A stretch of DNA of 64,000 nucleotides from a virus. Shown here one piece after another: positions 7,454 through 35,866 of this stretch. The stretch lies in the IMG/VR virus record IMGVR_UViG_3300038701_001599, positions 1 through 64,000 of that record; one strand, given 5' to 3'. Each line of letters starts with the position of its first letter. Within the stretch, counting starts at the first letter, position 1. Made by a program: the position numbers and the translations under genes. Below the pieces are notes generated by a model. The model did no database searches. It was not told the origin of the DNA and saw only the letters and a list, made by a program, of their open reading frames with translations.

Positions 7454-7511
7454 TAACCAACAAATTTATAATAAATCATATAAAATTTAGTTAAATTAAT
7501 TTTAATTGTTG

Positions 7512-7519
7512 TATATTTG
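7512..7519 (+). promoter_or_regulatory. Possible Bacteroidota-type -7 promoter element (TAnnTTTG) for the endonuclease ORF
   Basis: TATATTTG lies 29 nt upstream of ATG 7548. No clear -33 TTTG partner was seen. Confidence 0.2.
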
Positions 7520-7547
7520 TGAACATTAATCATTAAATCACAAACAA

Positions 7548-8336
7548 ATGCAACAAAAAAGATTAAACGACGATTACATTGTAAAAGAATACTTAAAAGG
7601 AAGAACACAAAAAGCTATAGCTAAAGAACTAAATACCTATAATACATCTATTAGAAGAGTTTTGCTTAGAAATAATATTAAACCAAGAGGAAATCATATT
7701 GTACAAAGAATAGTAAAACATAACTTTTTACAAAATTTAAAAGATCCGAGTGTACAATATTGGTTAGGATTGTTAGCAACTGATGGGTGTATAACAAAAA
7801 ACTATAGTGTAATATTAGATTTACAAAAAAAAGATAGGCATGTTTTAGAAGATTATATTAAATTTTCTGGTTATCCTTTAAAACTAAGAACTACTACTCA
7901 TAAAAAAACAGGTATAAAGTCACATAGAGTAGATTTTTCAAATAAAGAATTGGTAGAGTTTTTAGAATCTATAGGAATAGCTAGAAGAAAAAGTCTAGAT
8001 ATGGAATTAAAAATACCTATTACTTTTGCAATGTTAAGAGGCATAATTGACGGGGACGGGAGTTTTAGTAGAATAAATAAAACTAGAGCAAGATTAAATA
8101 TCACAACGGGATCAAAAAAGTTTGCGCAACAAGTTTTTAATTTTTTAAAAGAAAATAATTTTAATCCTACGTTAACTAGTACTATTAGCAATAGAAAAAA
8201 CAGATATTACTCCGTAAATATGTTTCGTCAAAAAGAGTTATCTCTTTTATATGATTTATTATATTCAGATGCCAAGTATTTTTTAAAAAGAAAATACTTG
8301 AAAATTGGCTCGTTACTAGGGAAACCTAGTAAGTAA
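7548..8336 (+). CDS. LAGLIDADG homing endonuclease (double-motif) with N-terminal HTH-like region
   Basis: Two LAGLIDADG motifs, WLGLLATDGCI and LRGIIDGDGSF, about 90 aa apart. Sits inside the interrupted polymerase gene. Confidence 0.8.
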   Translation: MQQKRLNDDYIVKEYLKGRTQKAIAKELNTYNTSIRRVLLRNNIKPRGNHIVQRIVKHNFLQNLKDPSVQYWLGLLATDGCITKNYSVILDLQKKDRHVLEDYIKFSGYPLKLRTTTHKKTGIKSHRVDFSNKELVEFLESIGIARRKSLDMELKIPITFAMLRGIIDGDGSFSRINKTRARLNITTGSKKFAQQVFNFLKENNFNPTLTSTISNRKNRYYSVNMFRQKELSLLYDLLYSDAKYFLKRKYLKIGSLLGKPSK

Positions 8337-8501
8337 ATTTCACTAAAACGGGGAAACCTTTGCATCAGGCAATCCCGTGCTAGCAAATAGATTAGGGCTG
8401 TTACCCTGTAATATCTATTGGGCAAGTGTAGAGACTTTACGTGAAACACCTGTACTTAACAGAGATGGTGAAGAGAAAGTCCAGCCAGAATAAACTGGTT
8501 G

Positions 8502-9356
8502 CAAGAGGGACGAGTGTTAGCAGAATACGCTAATGACCCTGATTATAGTGAGATTAGTTTAAATCCTGATAAAGATTTACATAGCTTTTCTGCTAAATTA
8601 TTATATCCTGAATTAGAGCCTCTTTCAGTATCAGAAATTAAGAAGAATCATTCTGATAAAAGGCAAAAGGCTAAGTCAATCTCATTTGCGATACCCTACG
8701 GAGGCAATGGGGCTACTATAGCTCAAAACCTCTCTTTAAGTATAAAACAAGGAGAAGATATTTATAATAAATTTATGAATGCTTTTCCAGGATTAAAAAA
8801 TTATTTTAATCAAGTAAAAAAAGAAACTATAGAACAAGGATATGTTCTTATAAATAAATTAACAGGAAGAAAAAGTTTTTTCTATAATTATGACGAATAT
8901 TTAAATTTAAAAGAAAGGCTAGAAAGTTATTCTAATAGTATAAATCATCCTGAGTCATTTCAAGGTTTATCTCAAACTTTTTGGGATTATTATGGACAAC
9001 AGAAAAGTATAGAAAGTGATATTTTTTTAGAAATGAAAGCATTACTTAGTAAGTATTTTAAATTAAAGAATACTTTTGAAAGAAAAGGGTTAAATTTTCC
9101 AATACAAGGTAGTTCTGCAGAAATGACTAAGTTAGCTGGCATTAAATTTTATCAGTGGATATTAGAAAAGAATTTATGGGGAAAAGTATTTATTTGTGCT
9201 TTTGTACACGACGAGATAGTCACTGAATGTCCTAAAAATATAGCAAACACAGTATCAAAAAAACTAAAGCAATGTATGGAAAGTGCAGGTAAAATATTTT
9301 GCCCTACTATTCCTATCATTGCAGAACCAAATATTGGAGAAAAATGGGATCATTAA
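8502..9356 (+). CDS. DNA polymerase family A, exon 2 (rest of motif A, motifs B and C)
   Basis: QEGRVLAEY; motif B RQKAKSISFAIPYGG; motif C FVHDEIV. No in-frame ATG (stop at 8469-8471; the track start is only TTG 8499). Confidence 0.8.
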   Translation, partial: QEGRVLAEYANDPDYSEISLNPDKDLHSFSAKLLYPELEPLSVSEIKKNHSDKRQKAKSISFAIPYGGNGATIAQNLSLSIKQGEDIYNKFMNAFPGLKNYFNQVKKETIEQGYVLINKLTGRKSFFYNYDEYLNLKERLESYSNSINHPESFQGLSQTFWDYYGQQKSIESDIFLEMKALLSKYFKLKNTFERKGLNFPIQGSSAEMTKLAGIKFYQWILEKNLWGKVFICAFVHDEIVTECPKNIANTVSKKLKQCMESAGKIFCPTIPIIAEPNIGEKWDH

Positions 9357-16487: not shown

Positions 16488-17212
16488 TAATCTCCAAAAA
16501 ATCATCATATTATGACCCCAGCGGAAGAGACCCAGGTAATCCTATTAATACAATAGGAGTTGTAGAAAACATTAGAGAAAGAGCTACAGATTATAGAATT
16601 GAAGTAAGATGGAAAGGAAGTTTTACAAATAGTTATAGTGATAAAGATCTGGAAAAAGTTGACACTTCTAATATTTTAGAAAAATATGCAAAGTATAAAT
16701 CTATTCCAAGCATAAATGAGATTATGCCTAAAGAAAATAGAGTTGATATTAAAGCTTTATCAGACTTTAACTCTTTTGAAGAAGCAGGATTAGATTATGA
16801 ATCTGCTGCTTTATTATTAAGTAGTTATGAAACAGCTCTTAGAAGACTTGAAGAAAAAAATGAGTTCTTGGAAGAGTTATATAACCAAGAACTACAAAAT
16901 CTAGAAAAAGGCAAAGTTGACAAAATTCCAGAAAAAGGAGAAGATAAAATGAGTGTTTATACTCAATCTCCAGCACCAACTAAATTAAAGTCAAAGTCTC
17001 CAAAAGTCAAAGTTATGGAAGGTGACAATTCTCGTTATAGAACATTTCCTAACGTAAGTACTAGTAGTACTTTAACTTCAGAAGAATACTCGCAAATATT
17101 AAAAACAGTAAGAGAAACGTATGGTAAACCAAATAAACCTACTAATATAGTAGTAGAAGGTGATGAAGAGTCTTATTATCCTGAAGATTTTCTTGAAGAT
17201 GACGAAATATGA
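16457..17212 (+). CDS. Hypothetical protein with acidic C-terminus
   Basis: ORF track; 31-nt overlap with the primase gene. Confidence 0.55.
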   Translation: MEKLKKGDSVVISKKSSYYDPSGRDPGNPINTIGVVENIRERATDYRIEVRWKGSFTNSYSDKDLEKVDTSNILEKYAKYKSIPSINEIMPKENRVDIKALSDFNSFEEAGLDYESAALLLSSYETALRRLEEKNEFLEELYNQELQNLEKGKVDKIPEKGEDKMSVYTQSPAPTKLKSKSPKVKVMEGDNSRYRTFPNVSTSSTLTSEEYSQILKTVRETYGKPNKPTNIVVEGDEESYYPEDFLEDDEI

Positions 17213-17928
17213 GTAAGCTTGAAAAATTAAATATAGACAAAAGTTGGCAAGATATATTAGAACCTTGGGTAGAGTTTAAGGAAGGGAATTTAAAACAAAT
17301 TTTACAATATTTAAAAGGTTTAGAAGTAGCAGGGAAAACAATCTGTCCAGCAGATAAGTACAATATATTTAGAGCTTTTTCCTTGCCTAAAAATAAAGTA
17401 AGAGTAGTTTGGTTATTACAAGACCCATATCCTAACCCAAGATTAACCAACGGAATCGCGTTGTCTGTCCCAAAAGGAGAAATGTCTCCTTCTTTGGAAG
17501 CAGTAAAGGACGAGTTATTTAATTACATTCCAGACTTTACTATAGACGATAGATTTGATGAAACTTTAGAGTTATGGACAGAACAAGGAATTCTTATGTT
17601 AAATAGTGCTTTAACTTGTCAAGCATTTCAACCTAAGTCTCATACAGAAATGTGGTATCCCTTTATTAGCCACGTTATAAAAGAGTTAAATAAAGAGACT
17701 GGACTTATATTCGTATTTTCTGGGAAAGTGGCTCAAACCTTTTCTAAATACGTTACAGGTAATAATCACGTTATAAAAACTTATCGCCCAGCAGCAGACA
17801 AACACAAAAGTTATAAAGATGAAAAATTATTTGTAGGCAATGATTTATTTAAGCAAATAGACGATATTATAGAAAAAACAAATGGTTCTGAATTTAAAAT
17901 CAAATGGTTAAAAGATGAAAGTACTTAA
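17209..17928 (+). CDS. Uracil-DNA glycosylase family-1-like protein with altered C-terminal catalytic loop
   Basis: VRVVWLLQDPYP, GIALSV..PSL and GILMLNSALT align to E. coli Ung. The HPSPLS loop is replaced by YRPAADKH. Confidence 0.65.
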   Translation: MSKLEKLNIDKSWQDILEPWVEFKEGNLKQILQYLKGLEVAGKTICPADKYNIFRAFSLPKNKVRVVWLLQDPYPNPRLTNGIALSVPKGEMSPSLEAVKDELFNYIPDFTIDDRFDETLELWTEQGILMLNSALTCQAFQPKSHTEMWYPFISHVIKELNKETGLIFVFSGKVAQTFSKYVTGNNHVIKTYRPAADKHKSYKDEKLFVGNDLFKQIDDIIEKTNGSEFKIKWLKDEST

Positions 17929-18595
17929 ATACCACGATCATACTGCTTCTGTAGGGTTTAATTTTATAGGAGAGATGGATAATCTTAATCCTAACCCAGA
18001 TTTAATTATTTTTACAGGAGGAGCAGATGTAAATCCAGGATTATACGGAGAAAAAAAGCATCCTTATACTGTAGTTAACTTGGAAAGGGATAAGTTAGAC
18101 TTAGAAAAATTTGCTGAATTTAGAACTACCCCTAAACTTATGATTTGTAGAGGAGCACAGTTTGGGTGTGTTATGGCAGGAGGTAAACTTATTCAACATG
18201 TATCAGGTCATGGGTTAAGAAGTACTCATGAAATAGAAACTTTTGATGGAAAGAAACTAGAAATTACTTCTACGCATCACCAAATGATGTATCCTTGGGA
18301 TGTAAAGAATCATTATATATTAGCCCATACTTTTAACCTTTCTGATACTTATCAAGGAGAAAATGAAGAAGAAATATTCAAGGCTGTAGAGTTACATAAA
18401 AAAGGAAAAGTAGTAAAGCCTCTTATTACAGAACCAGAAATTGTTTATTTTCCTGATATTAAAGCATTGTGTGTTCAAGGACATCCAGAGTATTATAATT
18501 GTCCTCAAGAAACTAAAGATTATATAAAGTTTCTAACTAAAAAACTCGTAGAAGATGAATTGGAGGACTATATTTGGTCTAAAGAAGAAGCCTAA
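17915..18595 (+). CDS. Class-I glutamine amidotransferase-like / peptidase C26 (gamma-glutamyl hydrolase family), copy 1
   Basis: FTGGADVNPGLYGE, LMICRGAQFGCVMAGG (nucleophile Cys), THHQMM, VQGHPEY. Confidence 0.7.
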   Translation: MKVLKYHDHTASVGFNFIGEMDNLNPNPDLIIFTGGADVNPGLYGEKKHPYTVVNLERDKLDLEKFAEFRTTPKLMICRGAQFGCVMAGGKLIQHVSGHGLRSTHEIETFDGKKLEITSTHHQMMYPWDVKNHYILAHTFNLSDTYQGENEEEIFKAVELHKKGKVVKPLITEPEIVYFPDIKALCVQGHPEYYNCPQETKDYIKFLTKKLVEDELEDYIWSKEEA

Positions 18596-18641
18596 AAAGG
18601 GCAAACTGATAAAAAACATTAAATTTTTACATAAATTAAAA

Positions 18642-19430
18642 ATGACAGAAATGAGTAAACCACTAATTGGAGTATTAGCACACAATCATAACGCACAAAC
18701 TTTAGGATTTGGTAGTAATGCAGCTTATATTGAATTTGCAAGAAAATTTGGTAATGTAGTCTTAATTGACCCTGTTAATCCTGACCCTCTTCCTATTAAC
18801 TTGCTACTTCTTCCGGGAGGTAGAGATGTTAATCCAGTACGTTATGGAGATGCTCCTAGTATTTATACACAGCCTAGTGACCCTCAGTATGAGTGGTTTT
18901 ATACTCAAGTATTCCATAAGTATGTAGAGCTTGCTAGTAAAAACAAGCTGGCTATATATGGCATTTGCGCAGGATTTCAGAATTTGAACGTTGTATTTGG
19001 AGGAAAGATTAATCAAGATATTGACCAAGTACAATCTACAAAATGGAGAGGTGAGTTAGTAGATGATTTGCAGTTATTTGCAGAGCATCAACTATTTGAA
19101 GTACCTGAACATTGGATTACAGGCAAACGTAGCAGTCGTATTAGTAATACTACTATTTCTAATAGTTGGCTAAAGACAAATTCTATTCACCACCAAGGCG
19201 TATTTGACCACACTGTATTAAAGAAAAGTTTTATTGATAGAATCCCTTATAAGCATACTATGAGTCCAGAAATGGTTACTTTAGCTATTAATAAAGACTT
19301 TGGTAATGTAGAAGTAATGCGACATAAGTCTTTGCCTATTATTGCAGAACAAGCACATCCAGAAGAAAGAACTGACCCTGTTTATACAAATATGCTTATT
19401 AATTATTTGCTAGAAAAAGTAATGGGATGA
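18642..19430 (+). CDS. Class-I glutamine amidotransferase-like / peptidase C26, copy 2
   Basis: LPGGRDVNPVRYGD, IYGICAGFQNLNVVFGG, IHHQGV, EQAHPEE. Start moved to ATG 18642 to avoid a 41-nt overlap. Confidence 0.7.
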   Translation: MTEMSKPLIGVLAHNHNAQTLGFGSNAAYIEFARKFGNVVLIDPVNPDPLPINLLLLPGGRDVNPVRYGDAPSIYTQPSDPQYEWFYTQVFHKYVELASKNKLAIYGICAGFQNLNVVFGGKINQDIDQVQSTKWRGELVDDLQLFAEHQLFEVPEHWITGKRSSRISNTTISNSWLKTNSIHHQGVFDHTVLKKSFIDRIPYKHTMSPEMVTLAINKDFGNVEVMRHKSLPIIAEQAHPEERTDPVYTNMLINYLLEKVMG

Positions 19431-19774
19431 TAAGGGTTAGCTCAACTCAACAAGTATTACTTGTTTTATTTTTATTGTCTTCTTTGGGTTTATACTTTTC
19501 TGATTTTAGTGATGAAGCCCCTACTAGAATATTTTTAATAAGTTCTTTTTCAGTTATGGTTTTTATATCTATTATAATAATTACTGTTATAGGGTATGCA
19601 TCAGAAGGCCCTGATTTAGAATTTAAAATGCCGCATTTATATATTGCAGACTACTTTAAAGAAAAAAAGCAAGAAAAAGAAAAGAAAGCTAAATTATATG
19701 ATGCTTTATATCACGCGAAAACAAAAGAAGAAATTGATTTAATTAATAAAAAATTAGAACATCTTGAAAATTAA
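19427..19774 (+). CDS. Two-TM membrane protein with K/E-rich tail
   Basis: Hydrophobic segments VLLVLFLLSSLGLYF and IFLISSFSVMVFISIIIITVIGY; coupled on both sides. Confidence 0.55.
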   Translation: MIRVSSTQQVLLVLFLLSSLGLYFSDFSDEAPTRIFLISSFSVMVFISIIIITVIGYASEGPDLEFKMPHLYIADYFKEKKQEKEKKAKLYDALYHAKTKEEIDLINKKLEHLEN

Positions 19775-20588
19775 CAATCCAACTTTTGGCACTGACTTTG
19801 AAATGTTTTTGAAGGATAAAAAAGACAATTTTATTAGTGCTATAGGACGTATTGGCGGTACTAAAGAAGAACCGCTATCTATTGGAGAGAGGTGCTTTCG
19901 TCAAGAAGATAATGTAGCAGCAGAGTTTAATATTCCTCCTGTTAATAATAAGAAAGACTGGGAATATTATATAGATTATTGTATTAATAAAGTACAATCT
20001 GACATTTTAGATGCTCAGGATTTAAATTTAGTTGCTGAGTCTGCAGCCTATTTTTCAGAAGAGCAGTTAAATCATCCTAAAGCCCAAGAGTTTGGTTGTA
20101 CTCCAAGTTTTAATGCATGGAGTGGTAGTACTTATCATATTAGAAAAACTGAGAATACTCTTAGAACTACAGGATTTCATTTACATGTAGGATTTAATTA
20201 TGATCCTGAAGGAGATTTGACTCTTCAGGATGTATTTGAACTTATGAAATATTTTGACCTTTACTTAGGTGTACCTTCAATTTTAATTGAACCTGCTAAT
20301 GCGCGGCGGGAGCTTTATGGAAAAGCTGGTGATTGTAGAGCTAAAGATATAGCAGAAAAGAATTTACTTATTGTAGAATATAGAACACTGGGAGGTTATA
20401 TGCTTAACTATAAAGGTTGGGTATACGACCAAATGATGAAGGCAATAGAAGCTTTTGAAAAGAAAGAAGAGTTGAATCCTGCTATTGAGGATGCTATTAA
20501 TCAGTCCAATATTCAACTTGCAAAACAAATTGTAAAAGATTACAAAATTAAACTACCTGAACATGTCAGCAGTACAGTCAATGCCTAA
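19764..20588 (+). CDS. Glutamine-synthetase-fold COOH-NH2 ligase (phiEco32-like type-2 amidoligase)
   Basis: FGTDFEMF (G.E.E-type motif), GFHLHVGF, RRELYGKAGDCR, EYRTLGG. The TTG start is required because the first ATG lies after the FGTDFE motif. Confidence 0.6.
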   Translation: MKINNPTFGTDFEMFLKDKKDNFISAIGRIGGTKEEPLSIGERCFRQEDNVAAEFNIPPVNNKKDWEYYIDYCINKVQSDILDAQDLNLVAESAAYFSEEQLNHPKAQEFGCTPSFNAWSGSTYHIRKTENTLRTTGFHLHVGFNYDPEGDLTLQDVFELMKYFDLYLGVPSILIEPANARRELYGKAGDCRAKDIAEKNLLIVEYRTLGGYMLNYKGWVYDQMMKAIEAFEKKEELNPAIEDAINQSNIQLAKQIVKDYKIKLPEHVSSTVNA

Positions 20589-20976
20589 AGTAGCAGATGT
20601 TAAAACAACAAGAGTATTTGTATATGGTACTCTTAGAGTAGGACAAGATAATTATAAGTATCTACTAAAAGATAAAGCAGGAGCTAATTATTTGGGGCAA
20701 AGTACTATTAGGGGTTATAAAATGGTAAGCCTTGGTGGGTTTCCTGCTATTTTTAATACTGGAAATGAAGAAGATATTATCATAGGGGATGTATTTGATG
20801 TTAATGAAGAAGTAAATTCTAATCTTGATAGGTTGGAAGGATACCCTGGCTGGTATGACAAAGTAGAAGTAGAAACCAATGATTATGGCAAAGCTTTTGT
20901 TTATACAATGGATAAAGTCAGAGATAGTGAAAATCTTATTGAAAATGGAGATTGGGTAGACTATTATGGAAGCTAA
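20563..20976 (+). CDS. Gamma-glutamyl cyclotransferase, AIG2/GGACT-like
   Basis: RVFVYGTLRVGQDNY ... LDRLEGYPGWYDK, typical of the GGCT fold. Confidence 0.7.
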   Translation: MSAVQSMPKVADVKTTRVFVYGTLRVGQDNYKYLLKDKAGANYLGQSTIRGYKMVSLGGFPAIFNTGNEEDIIIGDVFDVNEEVNSNLDRLEGYPGWYDKVEVETNDYGKAFVYTMDKVRDSENLIENGDWVDYYGS

Positions 20977-21184
20977 AGTACAAAAAGATAAAAATAATAA
21001 TGAGTACCATGGATTGGTAGTAGAAGACGGTAAAGAAATTTATCGTACTTCTACTACTAGTCTAGATTTTAATACTGCTTATACAAGAGCTTTAAATTGG
21101 ATGAGAGCCTTTATAAAAGACAGAAGAGAAAAAGCAATAAATAATTCTAAGAGGGTAAAAAAGTATCGTAATAAAAATAAATAA
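20966..21184 (+). CDS. Small basic protein, coupled to the ATP-grasp gene
   Basis: ORF track; 72 aa with K/R-rich C-terminus. Its stop overlaps the ATP-grasp start (TAATG). Confidence 0.5.
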   Translation: MEAKVQKDKNNNEYHGLVVEDGKEIYRTSTTSLDFNTAYTRALNWMRAFIKDRREKAINNSKRVKKYRNKNK

Positions 21185-22026
21185 TGGCAATTAAATGGAA
21201 ACAAGGGTATGTGAGGGTGTTTAGCAGACATCCTTCACATAATCCTCTCAGAAACGCAATAAAAACATTAGGGAAAAGAGTAATTCTTAGGCTAGGTAGT
21301 GTTACTAGCCCTAATTATATGCCTGATATTGAGATTAATACTGTAGAGAGTATAGAAAATACTAAGAATAAGTATACTATGAAGAAATTATTTCAGTCTG
21401 CAGGAGTACATTCTCCTAATTTTTATCCTTTGTTTAATACTCACGCTGGACATTGGGTAGATGGAGAGTTTAAACATATTAGTTTTAAAGATTTAAGTAA
21501 TATTTTACCTTACCCAGTTCTAGCTAAGAAAACTTATCGTAGTAGAGGAATGGGTATGATGAAATTAAATAATCAAGAAGAATTTCTAGAATTTATAGAA
21601 GAAAAAGTTACTAATAACAGACGGCATGAAGCTAATCCTTATTATTTAGAAGAATTTAAGAATTATATTAAAGAGTATAGAATTCATGTTAGTGAGTTAG
21701 GAAATTATTTTTATACTTGTAGAAAAGTATTAAGACAAGAATTTGCAGGAACAGACAATAACTGGTATCGAAATGATGCTAATAGTAATTGGTTGTTAGA
21801 AAGTAATGAAGCTTTTGATAAGCCAGATAATTGGGACGACATTGTAAAAGATTGTCAGAAAGCCAGAGAAACATTAGGACTAAGTATATGTGCTATGGAT
21901 GTAAAAGTAACTAAAGATGGAAGGTGGGCTATTTTAGAGGCTAACTCAGCACCTAGTTTTGGAGACGTTACTGTAGAAAAATATCTGTTAGAAATTACTA
22001 AGATTATCTTTAGTAAAAATAATTAA
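21184..22026 (+). CDS. ATP-grasp ligase, RimK-like
   Basis: PVLAKKTYRSRGMGM, YLEEFKNYIKEYRIHV, AMDVKVTKDGRWAILEANSAPSF. Confidence 0.65.
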   Translation: MAIKWKQGYVRVFSRHPSHNPLRNAIKTLGKRVILRLGSVTSPNYMPDIEINTVESIENTKNKYTMKKLFQSAGVHSPNFYPLFNTHAGHWVDGEFKHISFKDLSNILPYPVLAKKTYRSRGMGMMKLNNQEEFLEFIEEKVTNNRRHEANPYYLEEFKNYIKEYRIHVSELGNYFYTCRKVLRQEFAGTDNNWYRNDANSNWLLESNEAFDKPDNWDDIVKDCQKARETLGLSICAMDVKVTKDGRWAILEANSAPSFGDVTVEKYLLEITKIIFSKNN

Positions 22027-22057
22027 TTTAATAACAAAGTAAAACTAAAGAAAAAAT

Positions 22058-24223
22058 ATGTGTAATTTATCTGGATATATAGGGAAGAATCCTAATATAG
22101 ACAAGTTAAAGCTATTATTAGCTTTAGGAAGAACAAGAGGTACAGATAGCGTAGGCATTAATATTAATGGAGAGGTAGAAAAAGCTGTAAGTAAAAACTA
22201 CTTAAAGCACGGAGATTCTTTAGAGTTTATTCCAGAAAATTACTATCTTTATAAAGAGTTAGTTAAACCAGGAGAATATAATATTATTATGCAGCATAAC
22301 AGGAAAAAAAGTAGTGGTTTAGTTAAATTAGAAGCTGCTCATCCCTACGTTATTGAGTACGAGAAAGAAGACGGCAGCAAGCATAATTTATATTTTATGC
22401 ACAACGGTACTATTACAAATATTCACCAATTGTGCCGTAAATTCGGCTATACTGCTAGTGATTACGAAACAGACTCAGAAGCACTAGCATATTTAATTTT
22501 AGAAAATGGTGCTGAAGCAGTATTGCCTTGGTATGAAGGTGGGGCTGCCTTGGTTTGGTACTATGATGAAGATCCTAAAACAGTTTATATGTGGAAAGGA
22601 GCAAGTCCTAAAACATATGGCAATTATTATAGTGCTTATCAAAGTACTACTGAATTAGAAGAAGAGAGGCCTCTTCATTATTTTCATATGGATGACGGAA
22701 CTTACTTTTCTTCTCTACAAGAACATATGCACGCTATAAATGATGGTAGATTAAATTATGATGAGAATCCAGTTTATATGATTTCAAATAATAATTTATG
22801 TAAGTTTGTAGATGGGCAGATGGTAAATTCAAAGCTTATAGAAAGAAAGACTATTCCTGTAGCAAAACCAAAGACTGTAGCTTCAACAGCTACTAATTAC
22901 TATAGCAGTAAAACAGAGTTTAACAAAGACTTTGATTCAAGTAGTCCGGCTAATAACCGAATTTCTTTTAATGGGTATTCTTATCAACACGAAATTAGAA
23001 GAACTACTTCTTCTACGTTTAAGAAAGCAGATGGTGTATACAGTCTAGACATTAATGGTTATATAACAGCAGCATCAGAGAAAAAGCATGTTAAACTGTT
23101 TTACTTTATTAACGGCTATTTAATAAAAGATGCAGACACTTATACCGTTCTAAGAGAAAAGAAAGCTAATAGTGCAGACTTGGAAGATGTACATCATCTT
23201 TCCTGTTGGTCTGATATGTCTGGAAACAGATATTATAATGGACAAAAAATAGAAGGAAAACTTATCAAACCTTTATTTAGTGATGTTTATATTCAAATAG
23301 GAAAATATGGTAACTTCCTATCTGCACTAAAGTTTGATAGGGCTTTAAGAGAAGGCTTGCTTTCTACAGATCAGCTTGCCTTTGAGTTCTTTTGCGATTG
23401 CTATCATTTAAGTCCTGCAGCAGCACATCCTTATACAGTTAATACTTATGCTAAAAAAGACTTAGGTTGGGAAGACTTTACTATAGATTATTTTAGATAC
23501 TATCTTCCTGCAAATAAAAAACCCCACGAGATTAATCAAAAGTATAAAGATGCTTATGAAAATTTCATGAATTCTAGTCTAGATAAAGAAAAACCTACTT
23601 TGTTATTGCCTACAAAAGAAACAAAAGAAGTTAAAGACACTAAGAAGACAAAAGATGAGGAAAGACAGAAATTTTATGAAGATTTATTTGGACTAGATGA
23701 AGACGACGAAGACGATCTTGCTTCTTTTAACGAAACTTTTAAACAAAGATTTGTTGATAAAACCCAAGCTAATACTTGGTATTATATTTACAGAACAAAG
23801 TTAAAGTATCAGTATAATCCAAATTGGGGGCTTGATGAGTTTTGGATAACACAATATAAAGAAAATAGTAAAAATTATACAGAGGGAAATAAAAAAGAAA
23901 AATCAGATACAAAAGGAGAAAAAGTTATTAAAGCAAAGTCTAAGAGAAAAAGTGGAAAAGTAGTGAATTTAAATGATAACAATTATGACTTACCTTTTGG
24001 TTATGAAGACTCAGTTGTAGCTGGTTTAGAAGAGCAAAATCTATTAGATCAGGCAGAAGAATTATTTTTAAAAGATTATGATGATTTATTAGATAAGCAT
24101 GTAGAAATTTATAACTCATATTATGAATTTAATTTTGGATATGAGGATAACTCTACTAAAGAAAAATGGGAAAGATTAGATGCCAGCAGAAAAATATTAG
24201 AGGGACGCATTACAATTGAATAA
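22058..24223 (+). CDS. Class-II (Ntn) glutamine amidotransferase domain fused to an uncharacterised C-terminal region of about 480 aa
   Basis: MCNLSGYIG (Cys2 nucleophile), HNRKKSSG, FMHNGTITN, TDSEAL. The remainder has no recognised motif and includes K/E/D-rich stretches. Confidence 0.65.
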   Translation: MCNLSGYIGKNPNIDKLKLLLALGRTRGTDSVGININGEVEKAVSKNYLKHGDSLEFIPENYYLYKELVKPGEYNIIMQHNRKKSSGLVKLEAAHPYVIEYEKEDGSKHNLYFMHNGTITNIHQLCRKFGYTASDYETDSEALAYLILENGAEAVLPWYEGGAALVWYYDEDPKTVYMWKGASPKTYGNYYSAYQSTTELEEERPLHYFHMDDGTYFSSLQEHMHAINDGRLNYDENPVYMISNNNLCKFVDGQMVNSKLIERKTIPVAKPKTVASTATNYYSSKTEFNKDFDSSSPANNRISFNGYSYQHEIRRTTSSTFKKADGVYSLDINGYITAASEKKHVKLFYFINGYLIKDADTYTVLREKKANSADLEDVHHLSCWSDMSGNRYYNGQKIEGKLIKPLFSDVYIQIGKYGNFLSALKFDRALREGLLSTDQLAFEFFCDCYHLSPAAAHPYTVNTYAKKDLGWEDFTIDYFRYYLPANKKPHEINQKYKDAYENFMNSSLDKEKPTLLLPTKETKEVKDTKKTKDEERQKFYEDLFGLDEDDEDDLASFNETFKQRFVDKTQANTWYYIYRTKLKYQYNPNWGLDEFWITQYKENSKNYTEGNKKEKSDTKGEKVIKAKSKRKSGKVVNLNDNNYDLPFGYEDSVVAGLEEQNLLDQAEELFLKDYDDLLDKHVEIYNSYYEFNFGYEDNSTKEKWERLDASRKILEGRITIE

Positions 24224-24243
24224 TTATAAAATAAAAATAAATA

Positions 24244-25866
24244 ATGAAAATGGATAAAATAGTAACTTTTGATGGTTCTGTTGCACAAAAGTCTGAATGT
24301 AGGTTTATTAAAGGAGACTATTATAAGATAGGCAATCCAAGTATTAAAGATTCTGGGCAGTGTTTTAAACTCTTAAATAATACTACAGGGGAAAGTAAAT
24401 ATTATAGAATTAACTCTGGATATGTAGAATTTGACCACGAACAAAATGAATATGTTTTGAAAAACCAAGAAAACCTAATTCAGGGGTATGTAGATAAGAA
24501 AGGTACAATAGGATTTTTTACCCCTAATCAGTTTAAAAATGTTTATGTACAAACAGAAGCATCATTAACTGGGCGTACAGGTGTGCCATCTACAGGCACT
24601 CCTTGTATTGATGCTGAAACTGCAGAAGGCTTTGCAGACTTTCATAGCCTTGTAGACGGATTTTATTATTATTTAAACCCTAATTATAGTGAAGAAGAAA
24701 TTAAATTAGAGAAGGCGTATCATGAAAAATATAGAAGAAGGACGTCAACTAGAAAAATTTTATATAATAAGTTTGAGGAAAGTTATAATGCTGCAGAATC
24801 TAATATGTTTAAGTACATGATAGATACTTTTGAAGAAAGCCCTATAGATATTACAGAAAAAGCTAATCAAATTCATAGCTTATTAGGAGGACTAAGTTTT
24901 GGATATGAGTGTGAAACAAATTCAGGCAGAGTACCTGAAAAAGAACTTTATTTAAATGGAGTATTACCACTTAGAGATGGATCTATAAATGGACACGAAT
25001 ACACAAGTATTCCTCTAAGAAGCTCCAAGGGTGTCCAAGCTATGATTAACTTTTTTAATGTAGCAAAAGATTATTGTGGAGTAGATCAATCCTGTAGTCT
25101 ACACTTTCATATTGGTAATGTATTTAAAGGACTATCTTTACAAGAAAGAAAAGAACTTATGATTGCTATTTATATGCTGTATTACCAATTACAAGGCGAA
25201 ATTTGGGAAATTGTGCCTCCTTATAAGCGCAGTAATGATTATTTTAAGACAAAACGTGACTTTAAAGACCACTGTCAGCCACTTAGAACACTGGGCTTAA
25301 TGCACAATAGAATTATTACCAGAGAAGGGGAGATAGATGAAAAAGAGCTAGAACGTAGTTTTGCAGACCTCTTTAGATTCTTAAATGACGGTAGGCCTGC
25401 ATGTTCTGATTATAATATTAAGACTAGAACACATCATAAAGCAGGAGCTGCTAAGTGGAATATTACTAGTAGGTATTATGCTCTAAATTTATATAATGCA
25501 GCATTTTCTAAATCAGATACTGTAGAATTTAGAGCATATTCTGGAACAGTAAATCCAGATAAAGCAGTTAGCCTTTTATTAATTAGTGCTGCTATTATTA
25601 GATTTGCTAAAGAAAACACTAGAGAAATTCTCGCCCATAAAAATAAGTATAATTTAGAAGACATAGTATATTGTTATACTGATAATTTTGGACAAGAAAA
25701 AGGAAATAAATTTTATGAATTTGTAGCACAATATCTTATTAACTTTATTAGAGAAAGAAAGTCTAAGTTTCTTAATGCTTTCTTTGCAGATGATTTATAT
25801 GCTAATGAGTTTAAAGATGACTATAAATTTTCATTTTCTTGGGCTAAACAAAAATTATATGAGTAG
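24244..25866 (+). CDS. Glutamine-synthetase-fold amidoligase (Amidoligase_2-like)
   Basis: LSFGYECETN (G.E.E motif), CSLHFHIGN, VEFRAYSGT. Confidence 0.6.
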   Translation: MKMDKIVTFDGSVAQKSECRFIKGDYYKIGNPSIKDSGQCFKLLNNTTGESKYYRINSGYVEFDHEQNEYVLKNQENLIQGYVDKKGTIGFFTPNQFKNVYVQTEASLTGRTGVPSTGTPCIDAETAEGFADFHSLVDGFYYYLNPNYSEEEIKLEKAYHEKYRRRTSTRKILYNKFEESYNAAESNMFKYMIDTFEESPIDITEKANQIHSLLGGLSFGYECETNSGRVPEKELYLNGVLPLRDGSINGHEYTSIPLRSSKGVQAMINFFNVAKDYCGVDQSCSLHFHIGNVFKGLSLQERKELMIAIYMLYYQLQGEIWEIVPPYKRSNDYFKTKRDFKDHCQPLRTLGLMHNRIITREGEIDEKELERSFADLFRFLNDGRPACSDYNIKTRTHHKAGAAKWNITSRYYALNLYNAAFSKSDTVEFRAYSGTVNPDKAVSLLLISAAIIRFAKENTREILAHKNKYNLEDIVYCYTDNFGQEKGNKFYEFVAQYLINFIRERKSKFLNAFFADDLYANEFKDDYKFSFSWAKQKLYE

Positions 25867-27501: not shown

Positions 27502-28141
27502 ATCAAAGTTAAACTTAGTTTCTAAGGGGGTTTATAAAAATAAAACTCTTAGGTACATAGTTCCCACTTTAAAAAGTTATGGTAAAGAGTTTGTAGAAAA
27601 ACTTAGTAAGTTATCTTATAGAGGATTTACTATAGGAGATTTAAATTATTCTGATAGCTTATCAGATTATATATTTTGTATAGTATCAATAAATAATTAT
27701 AAAGCATTTAATGAATTACTGGATTATTTAGAAAATAAAGATTATTATGTTACTGATTATATATATAGTCTTACTAATAAATTACATTGTATTGTATTAA
27801 AGAATCCTAGACCAGAAGTTGTTGATAACTTTTTAGTAGGAAAATATAGTAAAATGTATAGTGAGGAAGAAATTAATAGATTTTTCCTAAAAACTGTAAC
27901 TATTAAGGGAGTAGAACATTATACAGAAGTATACGCTATTCTTACTAAAAGACCAGAATATCAAAATAAATTTATAGAAAATATTTATAAAGACTTTGGT
28001 ACTCAATTAGATTTAGTATCAGAAGACATGGAGTTAGATTATCCTCCTATACAATCAGAAGAAATACTTAATTTAGAAAAAGATAGTTTATTAGATTTAA
28101 TTCTAACCCAAAAAAATATTCTTTATGGAGTTAGCAGTTAA
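27488..28141 (+). CDS. Hypothetical protein
   Basis: ORF track; 217 aa. Confidence 0.6.
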   Translation: MYNPKSKLNLVSKGVYKNKTLRYIVPTLKSYGKEFVEKLSKLSYRGFTIGDLNYSDSLSDYIFCIVSINNYKAFNELLDYLENKDYYVTDYIYSLTNKLHCIVLKNPRPEVVDNFLVGKYSKMYSEEEINRFFLKTVTIKGVEHYTEVYAILTKRPEYQNKFIENIYKDFGTQLDLVSEDMELDYPPIQSEEILNLEKDSLLDLILTQKNILYGVSS

Positions 28142-28922
28142 CATTACTAGACCTAATACTAAAATAGATACTTATACTCCTAGAACTTTTGTTATAGGGG
28201 ATATACACTCAACATATCTTGCTTTAGCTGACCTGATAGATAAAATAGGTCTTAGAGAAAAAGACACTCTTATATTTTTAGGAGATTACATTGATGGGTA
28301 TCCTGATCCAGTAAATACTATAAAATATATTATTGATCTTAGTAGTCAATATAATGTAATTAAGATTAAAGGAAACCATGATTTATTTTTAGAGAGGTAT
28401 TTAAAAACTGGTATTCCTCCTTATGGTTGGTTTACTAACGGAGGAAAAACAACTTTTAATCAAGTCAAGAGTTATTTAAAAAATAATCCTCAAGAATATG
28501 ATTTATTTATGGACTTTTTTAATAGTCTTCATAATTATTATATAGATGATAATAATAATCTTTTTATTCACGGAGGATTTGATTATAAAAAGTCTTTATA
28601 TGAAAATAAAAGATTTTATGGAGAAGAAATATTTTATAATGATAGAGAATTAGTTCAAAAGGCCTTTAATTTACATAACAGCAATAAAAACAAAGTAAAT
28701 TTTTTACCTACACAAGAAATGTTTAAAGAAATATTTATAGGGCATACTACTACAGAAATTTATGATAAAAAAGAATATAAGCCTTTAAACTTTTTAAATG
28801 TATGGTTGTTAGATACAGGAGCAGGATGGACAGGTAAATTATGTGCTATGGATATAAATACCAAGGAATATTGGATGTCAGATTTTACTAGTACTTATTA
28901 CCCTACCTGGCAACACGATTAA
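28125..28922 (+). CDS. Calcineurin-like metallophosphoesterase (lambda Ser/Thr phosphatase / ApaH type)
   Basis: VIGDIHS, FLGDYIDGYPD, GNHD, FIHGG, IGHTT: the full metallophosphoesterase motif set. Confidence 0.7.
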   Translation: MELAVNITRPNTKIDTYTPRTFVIGDIHSTYLALADLIDKIGLREKDTLIFLGDYIDGYPDPVNTIKYIIDLSSQYNVIKIKGNHDLFLERYLKTGIPPYGWFTNGGKTTFNQVKSYLKNNPQEYDLFMDFFNSLHNYYIDDNNNLFIHGGFDYKKSLYENKRFYGEEIFYNDRELVQKAFNLHNSNKNKVNFLPTQEMFKEIFIGHTTTEIYDKKEYKPLNFLNVWLLDTGAGWTGKLCAMDINTKEYWMSDFTSTYYPTWQHD

Positions 28923-28940
28923 TAATTAAATACCAAACCA

Positions 28941-29759
28941 ATGAAAAAAATAAGAATATACTGGAGATACATAATTAAAGTCTTTAGTATATTAATAACT
29001 AAGGGGTATTATAAAGTAAAGACTCCAGAAGATGCTTCTGATTTAACTTATGAAACTGATACTGTAGTTGTCAGCGATCATAAAGTTATAGAAGAAAAAA
29101 TTAAAGAAGGTACTATTAGTAGAAAAGACAATTGGAAAATATTTGTAATTCTAGATGCAGGGCATGGCCCAACTACTTCAGGAAAAAGAAGTCCTGTTAT
29201 GGAAAATAATAAAGTATTCTATGAATGGAAATTTAATTTAGAAATAATAAATAGAATTTCTTATAAATTAAAGTCATTAGGAATTCCTCATGATATTGTA
29301 AATAAATACTTAGACCCAGACCATGGAAATGCTTTAAAAGAAAGAGCGTTTATTATTAACAATTTAATAATTCCACCTAAAGACTTATTTCCTCTAGTAA
29401 TATCTCAACATGCTAATGCTTGGGGAACTAATTGGAATAGTGCCAGTGGAAGTGAGGTGTGGGTTTATTATAATGGAGATAAAGATAGTAAAGCACATAA
29501 GGATAGAGTAGATTTAGCTAGTGTATTTTTAAAACATTATATTAAGAATTTAAAATTAAGAAATAGAGGAGTAAAATATAGACTTATAGATCAGTTTTAT
29601 TTACTTAGAAAAACTAAATATTTAACTATCTTTTTAGAGCCTGGATTTATGACTAATAAAAAAGAAGTAAAATTTTTAGATAGTGAAAAAGGAAAAGAAT
29701 TAGTAGTACAATCTTTTGTAGATGCAATAATTGAGATAAATAATAAAATTAAAACATGA
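28941..29759 (+). CDS. N-acetylmuramoyl-L-alanine amidase (Amidase_3 family) with N-terminal hydrophobic segment
   Basis: ILDAGHGPTTSGKRSP, EWKFNLEI, VISQHANA, LEPGFMTNKKE. Confidence 0.7.
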   Translation: MKKIRIYWRYIIKVFSILITKGYYKVKTPEDASDLTYETDTVVVSDHKVIEEKIKEGTISRKDNWKIFVILDAGHGPTTSGKRSPVMENNKVFYEWKFNLEIINRISYKLKSLGIPHDIVNKYLDPDHGNALKERAFIINNLIIPPKDLFPLVISQHANAWGTNWNSASGSEVWVYYNGDKDSKAHKDRVDLASVFLKHYIKNLKLRNRGVKYRLIDQFYLLRKTKYLTIFLEPGFMTNKKEVKFLDSEKGKELVVQSFVDAIIEINNKIKT

Positions 29760-29848
29760 TAAGCCAAACAACTGCAATGATTATAGCTATTGTAATAGGA
29801 GTAATAGCTATACAAATTTTAGAATATAAATCTAGGGAAAATGAATAA
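29756..29848 (+). CDS. 30-aa single-TM micro-protein (holin-like candidate), below ORF-track cutoff
   Basis: ATGA overlap with the amidase stop. MISQTTAMIIAIVIGVIAIQILEYKSRENE. Its stop overlaps the next start (29841). Confidence 0.35.
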   Translation: MISQTTAMIIAIVIGVIAIQILEYKSRENE

Positions 29849-30449
29849 TCTAATCGGTGTTACAGGACTTAAAGGCTCAGGCAAAGATACAGTAGCTAAA
29901 ATTATAAATACTCTCCATCAAAAGCAATATAAAACAAAAAGATTTGCCGACCCACTTAAAAGATTTGTAGCAGATATACTAGGCGTGTCTGTAGAGAAAC
30001 TTGAAGATAGAGAATTTAAAGAAACTATTTTAGGTAAAGAATGGTGGATTTATCAAAATCCTGATACTGGTGAAATATATCCTTATACAGACCCTCCAAT
30101 GTTTAAAGATCACCATAAGTTGATTAAGCTTACTCCTAGAATTTTTATGCAATTAATAGGCACAGACGTAGGCAGAGTTATACATCCTCAAATGTGGGTT
30201 AATGCTTTGTTTTCCAGTTATACTAAAGATAGTAAATGGATTATAGTAGACACTCGCTTTGATAACGAGGCTAAAGCTATTAAAGACAGAGGTGGGATAA
30301 TTATCAAGGTGGAAAGAGATGTAGGTATTACAGATACTCATGCATCAGAGAAAGGTATATCAGATGAATACATAGATATAGTTATTGATAATAATGGGAG
30401 TATGGAAGAATTAATTGAAAAAGTAAAGACTGCATTATATGCCAGCTAA
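29841..30449 (+). CDS. Deoxynucleoside monophosphate kinase (T4 gp1-like P-loop kinase)
   Basis: IGVTGLKGSGKDTVAKII and FADPLKRFVADILG resemble T4 gp1 (LSGVKRSGKDT ... LAGPIKDALA). Confidence 0.65.
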   Translation: MNNLIGVTGLKGSGKDTVAKIINTLHQKQYKTKRFADPLKRFVADILGVSVEKLEDREFKETILGKEWWIYQNPDTGEIYPYTDPPMFKDHHKLIKLTPRIFMQLIGTDVGRVIHPQMWVNALFSSYTKDSKWIIVDTRFDNEAKAIKDRGGIIIKVERDVGITDTHASEKGISDEYIDIVIDNNGSMEELIEKVKTALYAS

Positions 30450-32611: not shown

Positions 32612-32775
32612 CAGATAATGAAATTGAAGAAAAACTTAAAAATTATTCTGAAAATGAAATAGTTGCTTTTTGTAGTGACTACTATACAGAAGGAGATGTT
32701 TTAATGTGGTTAGCAGAAGGTATTAATTATGACTTAATTTACGAGTGCATAGAAAGAAATGAATTATGGGATTAA
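32608..32775 (+). CDS. 55-aa acidic micro-protein
   Basis: Manual translation: MTDNEIEEKLKNYSENEIVAFC... ATGA overlap upstream; overlaps the radical-SAM start. Confidence 0.35.
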   Translation: MTDNEIEEKLKNYSENEIVAFCSDYYTEGDVLMWLAEGINYDLIYECIERNELWD

Positions 32776-33641
32776 TTACCCATAAACCACGTAAAACTAT
32801 TAGAATAGACCCAAACAATAGAAGTAGTGACTTTATTCTAAGCTTTGGAAACGGCTGCTTATTTAATTGTCATTATTGTACTTGCAGAAGATTTAAACAT
32901 AAAGGAGTTAATATACCCACTAATGTAGATGAAATATTAGAAGCAGCAGATAGATTTCAAGAAAAATTGCCAGTTAAAATTCCTAATCAGATTAGTCGTG
33001 ACTTTTATATGTTTGATATTTCTTGCACAGAAGACTTCTGTCTACATGCTAAATATTATGATTGGAAAAAGATATTTAATTTCTTTAAAGAGAGGGATTC
33101 TATAGGAGCTACCATGGCTACTAAGTATGTAAATTATAATTTATTAGACTATAACCCCAAAGATAAACTTGGTAGAAGTAAAATTAGAATTAGGTTTAGC
33201 CTAATGCCTCAAGAATTATCTTATATTTTAGAGCCTAATACTAGTCTTATAGAGGAAAGAATTATGGCTATTAATACATTTAAGAAAGCAGGATATGAAG
33301 TACATATTAATTTTAGTCCTATAATCCTTTCTAAGGGTAGTTTAGAGCTATATAAGGAACTTTTTAGACAAATTGATGCCATACTACTAGATAAAGAAAA
33401 TATAGCCTCAGAATGTATCTTTTTAACTCATAGTGAAAGGTTACATAATTATAATATAGATAATGGATATTTTGAAGCAGAGGAATTATTATGGAAACCT
33501 GAAATTCAAGAATTGAAACAAAGTCAATATCAATCTAATGTATTAAGGTATAATTATAAATTAAAACACAAAGCTAAAAATACTTTTATAGAAGAATATA
33601 ATAAAATAATACCTTATATACCTATTAGATATATATTTTAA
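32766..33641 (+). CDS. Radical SAM enzyme, SplB / spore-photoproduct-lyase-like
   Basis: CLFNCHYC is a CxxxCxxC cluster motif near the N-terminus. The size and motif position fit the DNA-photolyase-like radical SAM group (COG1533-like). Confidence 0.5.
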   Translation: MGLITHKPRKTIRIDPNNRSSDFILSFGNGCLFNCHYCTCRRFKHKGVNIPTNVDEILEAADRFQEKLPVKIPNQISRDFYMFDISCTEDFCLHAKYYDWKKIFNFFKERDSIGATMATKYVNYNLLDYNPKDKLGRSKIRIRFSLMPQELSYILEPNTSLIEERIMAINTFKKAGYEVHINFSPIILSKGSLELYKELFRQIDAILLDKENIASECIFLTHSERLHNYNIDNGYFEAEELLWKPEIQELKQSQYQSNVLRYNYKLKHKAKNTFIEEYNKIIPYIPIRYIF

Positions 33642-34630: not shown

Positions 34631-35047
34631 ATGAATGAACAACTTGTATCTTTTGAAGTAGCTAAGTTAGCTAAAGAAGTAGGATTTAATTGGAAGTGTA
34701 ATTTTTATGATGAATATATTACAGTATATGAAGTACAAAATGTAAAATATAATAGAAAAAAGTTTGGAATTTATGAAGATTGGAATCATAAAAAATATGG
34801 AAAAGCTTTTACTAGTTTGCCTACACAATCATTATTACAAAAATGGCTCAGAGATATACATGGTATAGCAGTACATATTAGCACAGATATTACACTTAGT
34901 TGGATTTATACTATCCAATCATTACATCCACAAGCTACATATACAGGACTTACTATACACTCTGAACAAGTATTTAGTACTTATGAAGAGTCTCTTGAGA
35001 AAGGTCTTTACAGAGCTTTAAAATTAATTAATAGAAAACCAAACTAA
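34631..35047 (+). CDS. Hypothetical protein
   Basis: ORF track. Confidence 0.55.
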   Translation: MNEQLVSFEVAKLAKEVGFNWKCNFYDEYITVYEVQNVKYNRKKFGIYEDWNHKKYGKAFTSLPTQSLLQKWLRDIHGIAVHISTDITLSWIYTIQSLHPQATYTGLTIHSEQVFSTYEESLEKGLYRALKLINRKPN

Positions 35048-35619
35048 TGACATTACAAGAGTACAAACAATTAGCTCCTAATACAATGAAAGAAATGGAT
35101 TATAAAGACCAGCAAATACATTTAGTATTAGGAATATCAGGAGAATTTCTTAGTGAAGTAGCCCCTGTTCTTTCTGGGGGCATTATAAATAAGACAGAAC
35201 TTACAGAAGAGTTAGGAGATATGATGTGGTATGTAGGATGTTATGCTAATATTAATGATATGTTTTTACGTGCTTATCCTACTCCTCCTATTGATAGTGT
35301 AGGAAAAATTATAGGAGACTTACTAGAAAATAGTAAGAAAGAGTGGGTATACGGAAAAGAGTTTAAAACAGTTGATAAAGAAAAGTATATTCAACAAATA
35401 GTGTTTTGGGTAAATCATATTTGTAATCAATTTGATATAGAATTGTCAGATGTTTTATCTTTAAATATAGAAAAGTTGCAAAAAAGATTTCCTAATAAAT
35501 TTGAAGCAGACAAAGCAATTAATAAAAATACAGTAGCAGAACAAGAAATATTTAATGGGACTGACACCAAAACAGAAGAAGCAACTTCTGAAAGCTCAGA
35601 AGGAGCAGGAGAAAAATGA
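35047..35619 (+). CDS. MazG-like nucleoside triphosphate pyrophosphohydrolase
   Basis: LGISGEFLSEV and LTEELGDMMWYV (EE.GD..WY) are MazG core motifs. Confidence 0.6.
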   Translation: MTLQEYKQLAPNTMKEMDYKDQQIHLVLGISGEFLSEVAPVLSGGIINKTELTEELGDMMWYVGCYANINDMFLRAYPTPPIDSVGKIIGDLLENSKKEWVYGKEFKTVDKEKYIQQIVFWVNHICNQFDIELSDVLSLNIEKLQKRFPNKFEADKAINKNTVAEQEIFNGTDTKTEEATSESSEGAGEK

Positions 35620-35705
35620 TAAAAAAGCCAAAAAGAAGTGGTACAAAGAGAAATTTCAAAATAAAACTAACTAATGAAAATTGGAGAAACAATTGTTGAA
35701 TTAGT

Positions 35706-35864: not shown

Positions 35865-35866
35865 TA

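Follow-up and report, generated by a model that had tools for sequence, protein, structure and literature searches.

The DNA analysed here is a stretch of 64,000 nucleotides (hereafter the window), positions 1 to 64,000 of IMG/VR virus record IMGVR_UViG_3300038701_001599, and at 17915-25866 it carries nine co-directional plus-strand open reading frames (ORFs), which we refer to as g1 to g9. The window is part of a Crassvirales genome, as indicated by a replication module of crAss type and a minus-strand ORF of 4593 amino acids (aa); among GenBank entries it is most closely related to cr108_1 (MT774385.1, Steigviridae), at only 24-42% amino-acid identity, and the species is present on 17 metagenomic contigs, one of which, with g8, is 108.8 kb long. 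An earlier reading made from the letters alone (the original prediction) had described the nine genes as an island of amidoligases, amidotransferases and gamma-glutamyl-recycling enzymes, and the genes, their coordinates and all of the motifs quoted for them match the ORFs and their translations. We find that the phiEco32-type phage amidoligase module is represented in this region by its Crassvirales version; the module is a kind of gene set that was already described computationally in 2009 and of which a crAss-like copy is already annotated in GenBank (cr108_1). The nine genes are the following.

17915..18595, plus strand: g1, a class-I glutamine amidotransferase (GATase)-like protein of Peptidase_C26 subtype 1 with Cys78, His190 and HPE (PF07722 7e-13, phrog_7218 4e-33).
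18555..19430, plus strand: g2, a class-I GATase-like protein of Peptidase_C26 subtype 2 (PF07722 1.9e-21, full length).
19427..19774, plus strand: g3, a small two-transmembrane protein whose two hydrophobic segments are seen in the sequence; no family.
19764..20588, plus strand: g4, a COOH-NH2 ligase type 2, that is, a carboxylate-amine ligase of the glutamine synthetase (GS) fold, with a TTG start (PF14395 25.5 bits, cut-off 25; phrog_3815 1.7e-57).
20563..20976, plus strand: g5, an AIG2/GGACT-type gamma-glutamyl cyclotransferase (GGCT), accessory (PF06094 7.6e-23, phrog_2520 6e-26).
20966..21184, plus strand: g6, a species-specific 72-aa basic ORF; no family.
21184..22026, plus strand: g7, an ATP-grasp amide ligase, core (phrog_2599 7e-23; Synapsin_C 24.4 bits, cut-off 22.5).
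22058..24223, plus strand: g8, a class-II glutaminase of the N-terminal nucleophile (Ntn) type with a long tail, core (GATase_6 4.5e-11 over the first ~190 residues only; phrog_4736).
24244..25866, plus strand: g9, an Amidoligase_2 protein, a ligase of the GS/glutamate-cysteine ligase (GCL) fold, core (PF12224 18.5 bits, below the cut-off of 22; phrog_2443 1.7e-29).

Profile searches recovered every enzyme family named in the original prediction, g9 being assigned through phrog_2443 together with an AlphaFold model; many g9 homologues carry PF12224. Both C26 proteins lie well above the Pfam cut-off of 20.5 bits (g1 49.3, g2 77.3) and have an invariant Cys and His of the class-I triad as well as the HPE motif, and in the family alignment of g1 the Cys, HHQ and His are all invariant. 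Orthologues of g1 are found in cr108_1 (41%) and Vibrio phage IME234 (36%), and those of g2 in IMG/VR loci L012-L014 (identity 36-72%). Because the homologues of g2 begin at about residue 31-34 (MTEMSKPLIG), the true start of g2 probably lies near 18645-18654, and the overlap between g1 and g2 is probably not real. We note that g2 is interrupted in some sister strains: in L006 (7262-8413) and L009 (6505-7656) it is broken by a 1152-bp intron-like insert (at window position 18973/18976) containing a minus-strand 281-aa HNH-type ORF and, on the plus strand, a partial group I intron match (RF00028, 37.7 bits, E 1.3e-7, below the gathering score); it is uninterrupted in the window and in strains L007, L008, L010 and L011.

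Among the remaining genes, g4 shares 29-34% identity with the phiEco32 and PaP3 proteins and belongs to a family with 17 invariant residues. The TTG start is required, as had been predicted: D11 and E13 of its FGTDFE motif do not vary among 42 homologues, and the next Met comes only at residue 14. g5 scores 81.8 bits against the GGACT cut-off of 22.8 and contains both VYGTLR and LEGYP. g7, which is better conserved than any other protein of the set (79% identity to L012), had been called a RimK-like ATP-grasp ligase; the ATP-grasp assignment holds, whereas membership of the RimK family does not (TIGR00768 31.2 bits versus 143.4), the other matches being weak ones to Ddl and R2K and, in NCBIfam, to rimK_fam (1.4e-7) and MptN (7e-7), both far below their cut-offs. 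Sequence searches with g4, g8 and g9 against the PDB gave no real relatives, and longer fusion homologues of these three proteins contain no extra Pfam domains. Neither g3 nor g6 was assigned a family in Pfam, PHROG or NCBIfam searches. Homology to g3 covers the C-terminal half alone and occurs solely in the closest relative, L012; g3 is lineage-specific and probably lies outside the enzyme set. For g6, tblastn against L001-L003 and L012-L016 gave no match, and at its position in relatives the GGCT and ATP-grasp genes abut (L012) or overlap (L013 and L014). The idea that the 72-aa ORF is a carrier or precursor is therefore not supported, as it has no homologue outside its own species; nor do crAss-type loci contain a conserved small ORF of the kind that a carrier- or precursor-peptide pathway (Pup-like, or that of a peptide made on the ribosome and modified after translation) would have. 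Matches to sigma-70 promoters in the island are at chance level, and there is no convincing plus-strand terminator inside it.

Megablast of the island against GenBank phages gave zero matches. By tblastn, g4 has relatives in 308 GenBank phage records, and an alignment-based scan found relatives in at least 579 IMG/VR contigs, unlike a scan with the single g4 protein, which found zero. The original prediction had treated the island as highly novel; it is instead a widespread and already named module. We fetched 80 IMG/VR loci, scored their six-frame ORFs with hidden Markov models built from our own alignments, and counted as complete the 39 loci flanked by 7 kb or more on each side. The COOH-NH2 ligase is present in 39/39 of these (100%, by construction), as are the Amidoligase_2 core, the class-II GATase and the ATP-grasp protein (39/39, 100%, for each), while C26 is present in 77% and GGCT in 13/39 (33%); all components are on one strand in those loci. 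The module is thus a four-enzyme invariant core, consisting of both GS-fold ligases, the ATP-grasp ligase and the Ntn glutaminase, to which C26 and GGCT are accessory, and the frequencies of the latter two do not support the "complete build / trim / recycle toolkit" proposed earlier as the unit. The same set is annotated in phiEco32 (gp77-gp88), PaP3 (orf42-orf50), a 7-11-like Salmonella phage, Vibrio phage IME234 and cr108_1; among these five, GGCT is annotated in the phiEco32 and PaP3 neighbourhoods only. When 185,579 cellular species genomes were searched with the pattern of the marker ligase, the COOH-NH2 ligase, only 5 contigs were found (four from metagenome-assembled genomes and one 1.1-kb isolate scaffold). 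The marker ligase is essentially phage-restricted, and most of the cellular contigs are probably viral.

The components occur in two types of gene order. With L2 for the COOH-NH2 ligase, A2 for Amidoligase_2, G2 for the class-II GATase, AG for ATP-grasp and GG for GGCT, the order in PaP3, phiEco32 and the 7-11-like phage is C26-L2-[209-aa family]-A2-G2-AG(-GG), and that in crAss-like contigs is C26-L2-GG-AG-G2-A2 or AG...C26-L2-G2-A2. In 79/81 loci, whichever order they have, the GATase-II and Amidoligase_2 genes lie end to end (no more than 150 nt apart), and the L2 and A2 genes never abut in these loci. That this adjacency survives the inversion of gene order argues that the two are coupled, and the abutment of g8- and g9-type genes suggests a two-component enzyme. 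Two further families were seen in loci of the A2-G2-AG order and not in the window. One, a common additional part of the module, is about 209 aa long and has no match in Pfam; its gene separates those of the COOH-NH2 ligase and Amidoligase_2 (L049:10713-11342 and 48 other loci). The other is a 97-aa ORF directly after the ATP-grasp gene (L035:14235-14528 and 11 other IMG/VR loci); it gives a weak match to the glycine-cleavage H-protein, a lipoyl-carrier fold (E 0.0016, below the cut-off), and apparently lacks the lipoyl lysine.

The window has all of the families that mark the phiEco32 type: a COOH-NH2 ligase type 2, an Amidoligase_2 protein, a long class-II GATase without a synthase part and an ATP-grasp protein (phrog_2599). 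Like the phiEco32/PaP3/LUZ24-like module, it has the same five enzyme families on one strand in the early/replication region of a podovirus-type genome. It departs from that module in its order, which is C26-C26-L2-GG-AG-G2-A2 rather than L2-[phrog_4877]-A2-G2-AG-GG, in having C26 as two paralogues and in lacking both the phrog_4877 protein and the upstream pair of ~320-400-aa hypothetical proteins, and the protein identities are only 23-41%. No window ORF matches the accessory proteins of phiEco32 and PaP3 (phrog_4877; gp87/gp88-type hypotheticals), which vary between lineages and so do not define the module. In cr108_1, the closest GenBank relative (g4 39%, ATP-grasp 35%, g1 41%), the module likewise lies between the primase and uracil-DNA glycosylase (UDG) genes; it differs from that of the window in having no GGCT, a single C26, two extra hypothetical proteins and a UDG gene that follows the module instead of preceding it. 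The Pfam name of PF14395, "Phage phiEco32-like COOH.NH2 ligase-type 2", and the passages on this gene set in two later papers (PMC10580990, PMC11945000), which attribute it to Iyer et al. 2009, agree with the statement in the original prediction that such phage neighbourhoods had been flagged in that year.

We next consider the two proteins encoded by the fixed gene pair. The AlphaFold model of g9 (pLDDT 92.9) consists of a family-specific N-terminal beta domain (residues 1-110), a linker and a catalytic domain (about 205-540). Its best Foldseek matches in the PDB are GshF (3e-4), then plant and E. coli GCL, YbdK and GS, and more weakly Dop (E-values 0.36-2.6); the top matches are GS-fold carboxylate-amine ligases, mostly acting on the gamma-carboxylate of glutamate. 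In the family alignment E222, E224, H287, R410, E428 and R430 are invariant. When the N-terminal domain was searched against 1.84 billion representatives, nearly all full-length hits were the N-termini of ~450-650 aa proteins, many of them already known g9 homologues, and thus no Rosetta-stone clue emerged; homology between this domain and the middle domain of g8 was considered and rejected (hhalign probability 3%). The AlphaFold2 model of g8 has a confident glutaminase domain (1-265), a beta-rich middle region of moderate confidence (about 298-450) and a remainder that is disordered or helical, with a K/E-rich tail. Its best Foldseek matches, confined to residues 1 to about 340, are GFAT, GlmS and PurF (5e-10) and also the glutaminase domains of AsnB. 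GlmS residues C1, R26, R73, N98, G99 and D123 correspond to C2, R27, R82, N116, G117 and D139 of g8, and these glutamine-site residues are invariant in 22 homologues, except for C2, which is nearly invariant, placing g8 among the class-II Ntn enzymes. A synthase or acceptor domain of known type was not found in g8, Pfam giving nothing past residue ~190 and Foldseek aligning the glutaminase domain alone.

We think it moderately probable that the module is a set of co-directional cytoplasmic enzymes, located in the replication (early/middle) block and built around g4, g9, g7 and g8, that works as follows. g4, g7 and g9 would each activate a carboxylate with ATP as an acyl-phosphate and make one amide bond; with three ATP-dependent ligases, the product would therefore contain as many as three new amide bonds. 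g8 and g9 would form a two-component glutamine-dependent pair in which ammonia derived from glutamine is passed to the acyl-phosphate made by g9. That g8 is the ammonia-delivering half is the simplest reading because its glutamine site is intact, it lacks a synthase domain and its place beside a GS-fold ligase is fixed. Alternatively, its Ntn domain might unload a gamma-glutamyl amide made by g9, for which EgtC- or MgsA-like enzymes provide an analogy. The two C26 proteins and the GGCT, being dispensable in many loci, would serve as accessory enzymes for the trimming and recycling of gamma-glutamyl or amide groups, and the two-transmembrane protein and the 72-aa ORF would be bystanders. The probable acceptor is a small peptide, or the precursor of one, that contains glutamate and is common to many bacteria.

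Several points weigh against this scheme. The roles proposed for the members come from sequence and models; the fold matches of g9 have low TM-scores (0.25-0.3); and the C26 proteins could be glutaminase subunits and not hydrolases. The loci that we counted are phylogenetically related, and the figures of 100% and 98% therefore overstate independent support. The IMG/VR loci reveal no linkage to peptidoglycan enzymes, and the recurrent neighbours that they do reveal, namely primase, UDG and exonuclease genes, fit nucleotide or DNA chemistry as well as they fit mere timing of expression. In agreement with the original prediction, we found no experimentally demonstrated product of the module in the literature searched, which reached to mid-2026. 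Directed evolution of a module-bearing Pseudomonas phage gave parallel missense mutations in the amidoligase and GATase genes (PMC11450229), which suggests that the module has a function relevant to fitness.

What the module acts upon can be read in four ways. The published candidate for the acceptor is the stem-peptide precursor of peptidoglycan: in their passages on this gene set, PMC10580990 and PMC11945000 label it a "putative peptidoglycan-modification module" with a possible role in superinfection exclusion or in preparation for lysis. On this account, which goes back to the Iyer/Aravind prediction of 2009, the stem peptide of a cytoplasmic murein precursor gains residues, or has residues amidated, through the action of the ligases, and the wall is altered against superinfection or for lysis. 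It was absent from the original prediction, which had named a nucleotide or DNA base, a polyamine or a protein as the acceptor. The weak Ddl-like matches of g7 and the presence of an Amidase_3 gene 3 kb downstream of the module in the window species are consistent with it. Amidation of stem-peptide carboxylates by glutamine-dependent enzymes is well established (MurT/GatD, AsnB/LtsA), which also counts in its favour, and the phylogenetic breadth of the hosts calls for a universal acceptor. However, the 80 IMG/VR loci contain no recurrent linkage to murein hydrolases or synthases, the Amidase_3 linkage is limited to the window species and L012, no Mur-ligase-like or UDP-sugar-binding domain was detected in the module proteins, and the reading itself comes from prediction. 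We regard modification of a peptidoglycan precursor as possible but doubtful.

The fold of g9 raises a second possibility, that the product of the module is a soluble gamma-glutamyl peptide or amine conjugate (resembling glutathione, amidated, or formed with a polyamine) for use in redox chemistry, DNA packaging or counter-defence. The closest folds to g9 are GshF and GCL, a GCL-type ligase together with an ATP-grasp ligase follows the logic of glutathione synthesis (GshA/GshF GCL and ATP-grasp), C26 and GGCT are enzymes of gamma-glutamyl catabolism, and no macromolecule-binding domain of known type was detected in the module enzymes. Two-component amidation, as by MurT/GatD, is likewise similar in that a dedicated glutaminase gene abuts a ligase gene. 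Yet a relation in sequence to the glutathione or MurT/GatD enzymes is undetectable, TM-scores are ~0.3, and the pair here consists of a class-II glutaminase and a GS-fold ligase, a pairing that to our knowledge occurs in no characterised amidotransferase. The E. coli Puu pathway resembles the module in pairing a GS-fold ligase (PuuA) with a C26 hydrolase (PuuD) and in using gamma-glutamyl as a transient handle; the window differs in having three ligases and an Ntn glutaminase and no oxidase or dehydrogenase. The C26 proteins do not qualify as PuuD (NF008471 15.4 bits versus a cut-off of 266), neither g4 nor g9 matches Gln-synt_C, and no protein reaches the cut-off of the GshA, GshB, PuuA or PuuD models. 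GGCT and C26 are also absent from many loci, which counts against a soluble product, as does the fact that a macromolecule could be bound by the beta domain at the N-terminus of g9 or by the middle domain of g8. We regard a soluble conjugate, likewise, as possible but doubtful.

A third possibility is that a protein of the phage or the host is tagged with glutamate or a short peptide, as by RimK, LysX or PafA, and that the hydrolases trim this tag. The 2009 survey by Iyer, Abhiman, Burroughs and Aravind, to go by its title, reportedly concerns peptide tagging by these folds. The best NCBIfam matches of g7 are to the RimK family, MptN and LysX, and PafA and Dop, which share the GS fold, are among the fold matches of g9. 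The g7 matches, however, fall far below the family cut-offs, those of g9 to Dop are weak, and a conserved small target or carrier was not found, g6 being species-specific. We consider protein tagging very unlikely.

The remaining possibility, which the original prediction favoured, is that a base of the phage DNA or a deoxynucleoside monophosphate (dNMP) receives a glutamyl or peptidyl adduct from the ligases. The prediction had pointed to the UDG gene next to the island, and the cluster indeed always lies within the replication module; that adjacency lends DNA chemistry no particular support, however, as UDG, primase and exonuclease genes belong to the replication module that hosts the cluster in several lineages. 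In some viral contigs amidoligase and amidotransferase genes stand beside thymidine-hypermodification genes, which are themselves phage multi-enzyme sets in DNA-metabolism regions (Lee et al. 2021, PMC8989533). In addition, this phage has a gene related to spore photoproduct lyase (SPL), a radical S-adenosylmethionine (SAM) enzyme:

32766-33641, plus strand: SPL-like radical SAM protein (Pfam SPL 5.3e-21; CxxxCxxC at residues 31-38; 1.7e-13 to solved SPL structures).

Relatives of this gene are present on five IMG/VR contigs, three of which (L102, L105 and L106) have module genes 6-8 kb away, the other two being short. Another SPL-like enzyme, M6 gp53, has modified thymine in DNA as its target (PMC8989533). 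On the other hand, tblastn with the SPL-like gene against 50,697 GenBank phage records gave no match. Since these include the 308 marker-ligase records, we rejected the gene as a general component of the module. The enzymes that define thymidine hypermodification (the 5-hydroxymethyluridine DNA kinase 5-HMUDK, the transferase aGPT-Pplase, the dUMP hydroxymethylase/thymidylate synthase, and TET/JBP homologues) were not found among the ORFs tested, namely plus-strand ORFs of the window searched with Pfam, PHROGs or precomputed Pfam, about 45 kb of the genome lying outside the window. The only P-loop kinase, at 29841-30449, was considered as 5-HMUDK and rejected, as it is a dNMP kinase of an ordinary kind, present in about 3000 phages. 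Moreover, restriction enzymes are able to cut the DNA of phages that bear the module (that of U17 by 11/16, that of tf by HaeIII). An adduct on DNA or nucleotides is thus unlikely. Two further proposals, that in the crAss-like clade the module cooperates with the nearby SPL-like enzyme, so that thymine or another base in DNA or nucleotides acquires a glutamyl or peptidyl adduct, and, more generally, that g8 and g9 would be the first two-component class-II-glutaminase/GS-fold amidoligase, are jointly given little chance by us. If true, the former would be a route of hypermodification independent of the pathway through the 5-hydroxymethyldeoxyuridine kinase and aGPT-Pplase.

Whichever acceptor it uses, the module ranks with the most widespread among the multi-enzyme gene sets of tailed phages without a known product, and the question of that product is more than 15 years old. 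The phages that carry it infect E. coli, Pseudomonas and marine bacteria, and crAss-like phages carry it too. Identification of the product would show how a universal host component, be it cell wall, metabolite, DNA or protein, is chemically rewired, and would also give a function to two Pfam families known from prediction alone. The window adds nothing categorically new. It provides a compact variant from the crAss lineage and a sharper definition of the unit: a four-enzyme core with a fixed glutaminase-amidoligase gene pair, dispensable C26 and GGCT, and no conserved carrier peptide.

The gene that precedes the island, described in the original prediction as a variant UDG gene, is indeed a relative of family-1 UDG.

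17209-17928, directly upstream of g1: UDG-like gene (TIGR00628 1.6e-36, below the cut-off).

The encoded protein keeps the aspartate of QDPY and has Arg at the position of the catalytic His187 of E. coli Ung (YRPAAD replaces HPSPLS); the equivalent His is retained in 3/4 aligned crAss-like UDG homologues. Elsewhere in the window, the DNA polymerase I gene (6272-9356) is split into an N-terminal part (6272-7456) and a C-terminal part (8499-9356), between which lies an endonuclease ORF (7548-8336; phrog_4645, with weak LAGLIDADG/HNH matches), an arrangement that looks like a mobile insertion of the intron or intein type. A match to the Pistol ribozyme (56.6 bits, gathering score 34.5) together with three tRNA genes are located at 214-290, 1329-1414, 1511-1584 and 2161-2234, and the first 4 kb, which contain them, have a G+C content of 0.37-0.39 versus 0.26-0.34 across the remaining window. 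Downstream of the amidoligase module, the plus strand encodes at 28125-30449 and 35047-37049 a Metallophos phosphoesterase, the Amidase_3 protein (with a hydrophobic N-terminus), the dNMP kinase, a MazG-like pyrophosphatase and an RNA ligase. The 4593-aa minus-strand ORF (42278-56059) is flanked by other large minus-strand ORFs (of 1514, 637, 670 and 1182 aa), and portions of it match a giant hypothetical protein of cr108_1.

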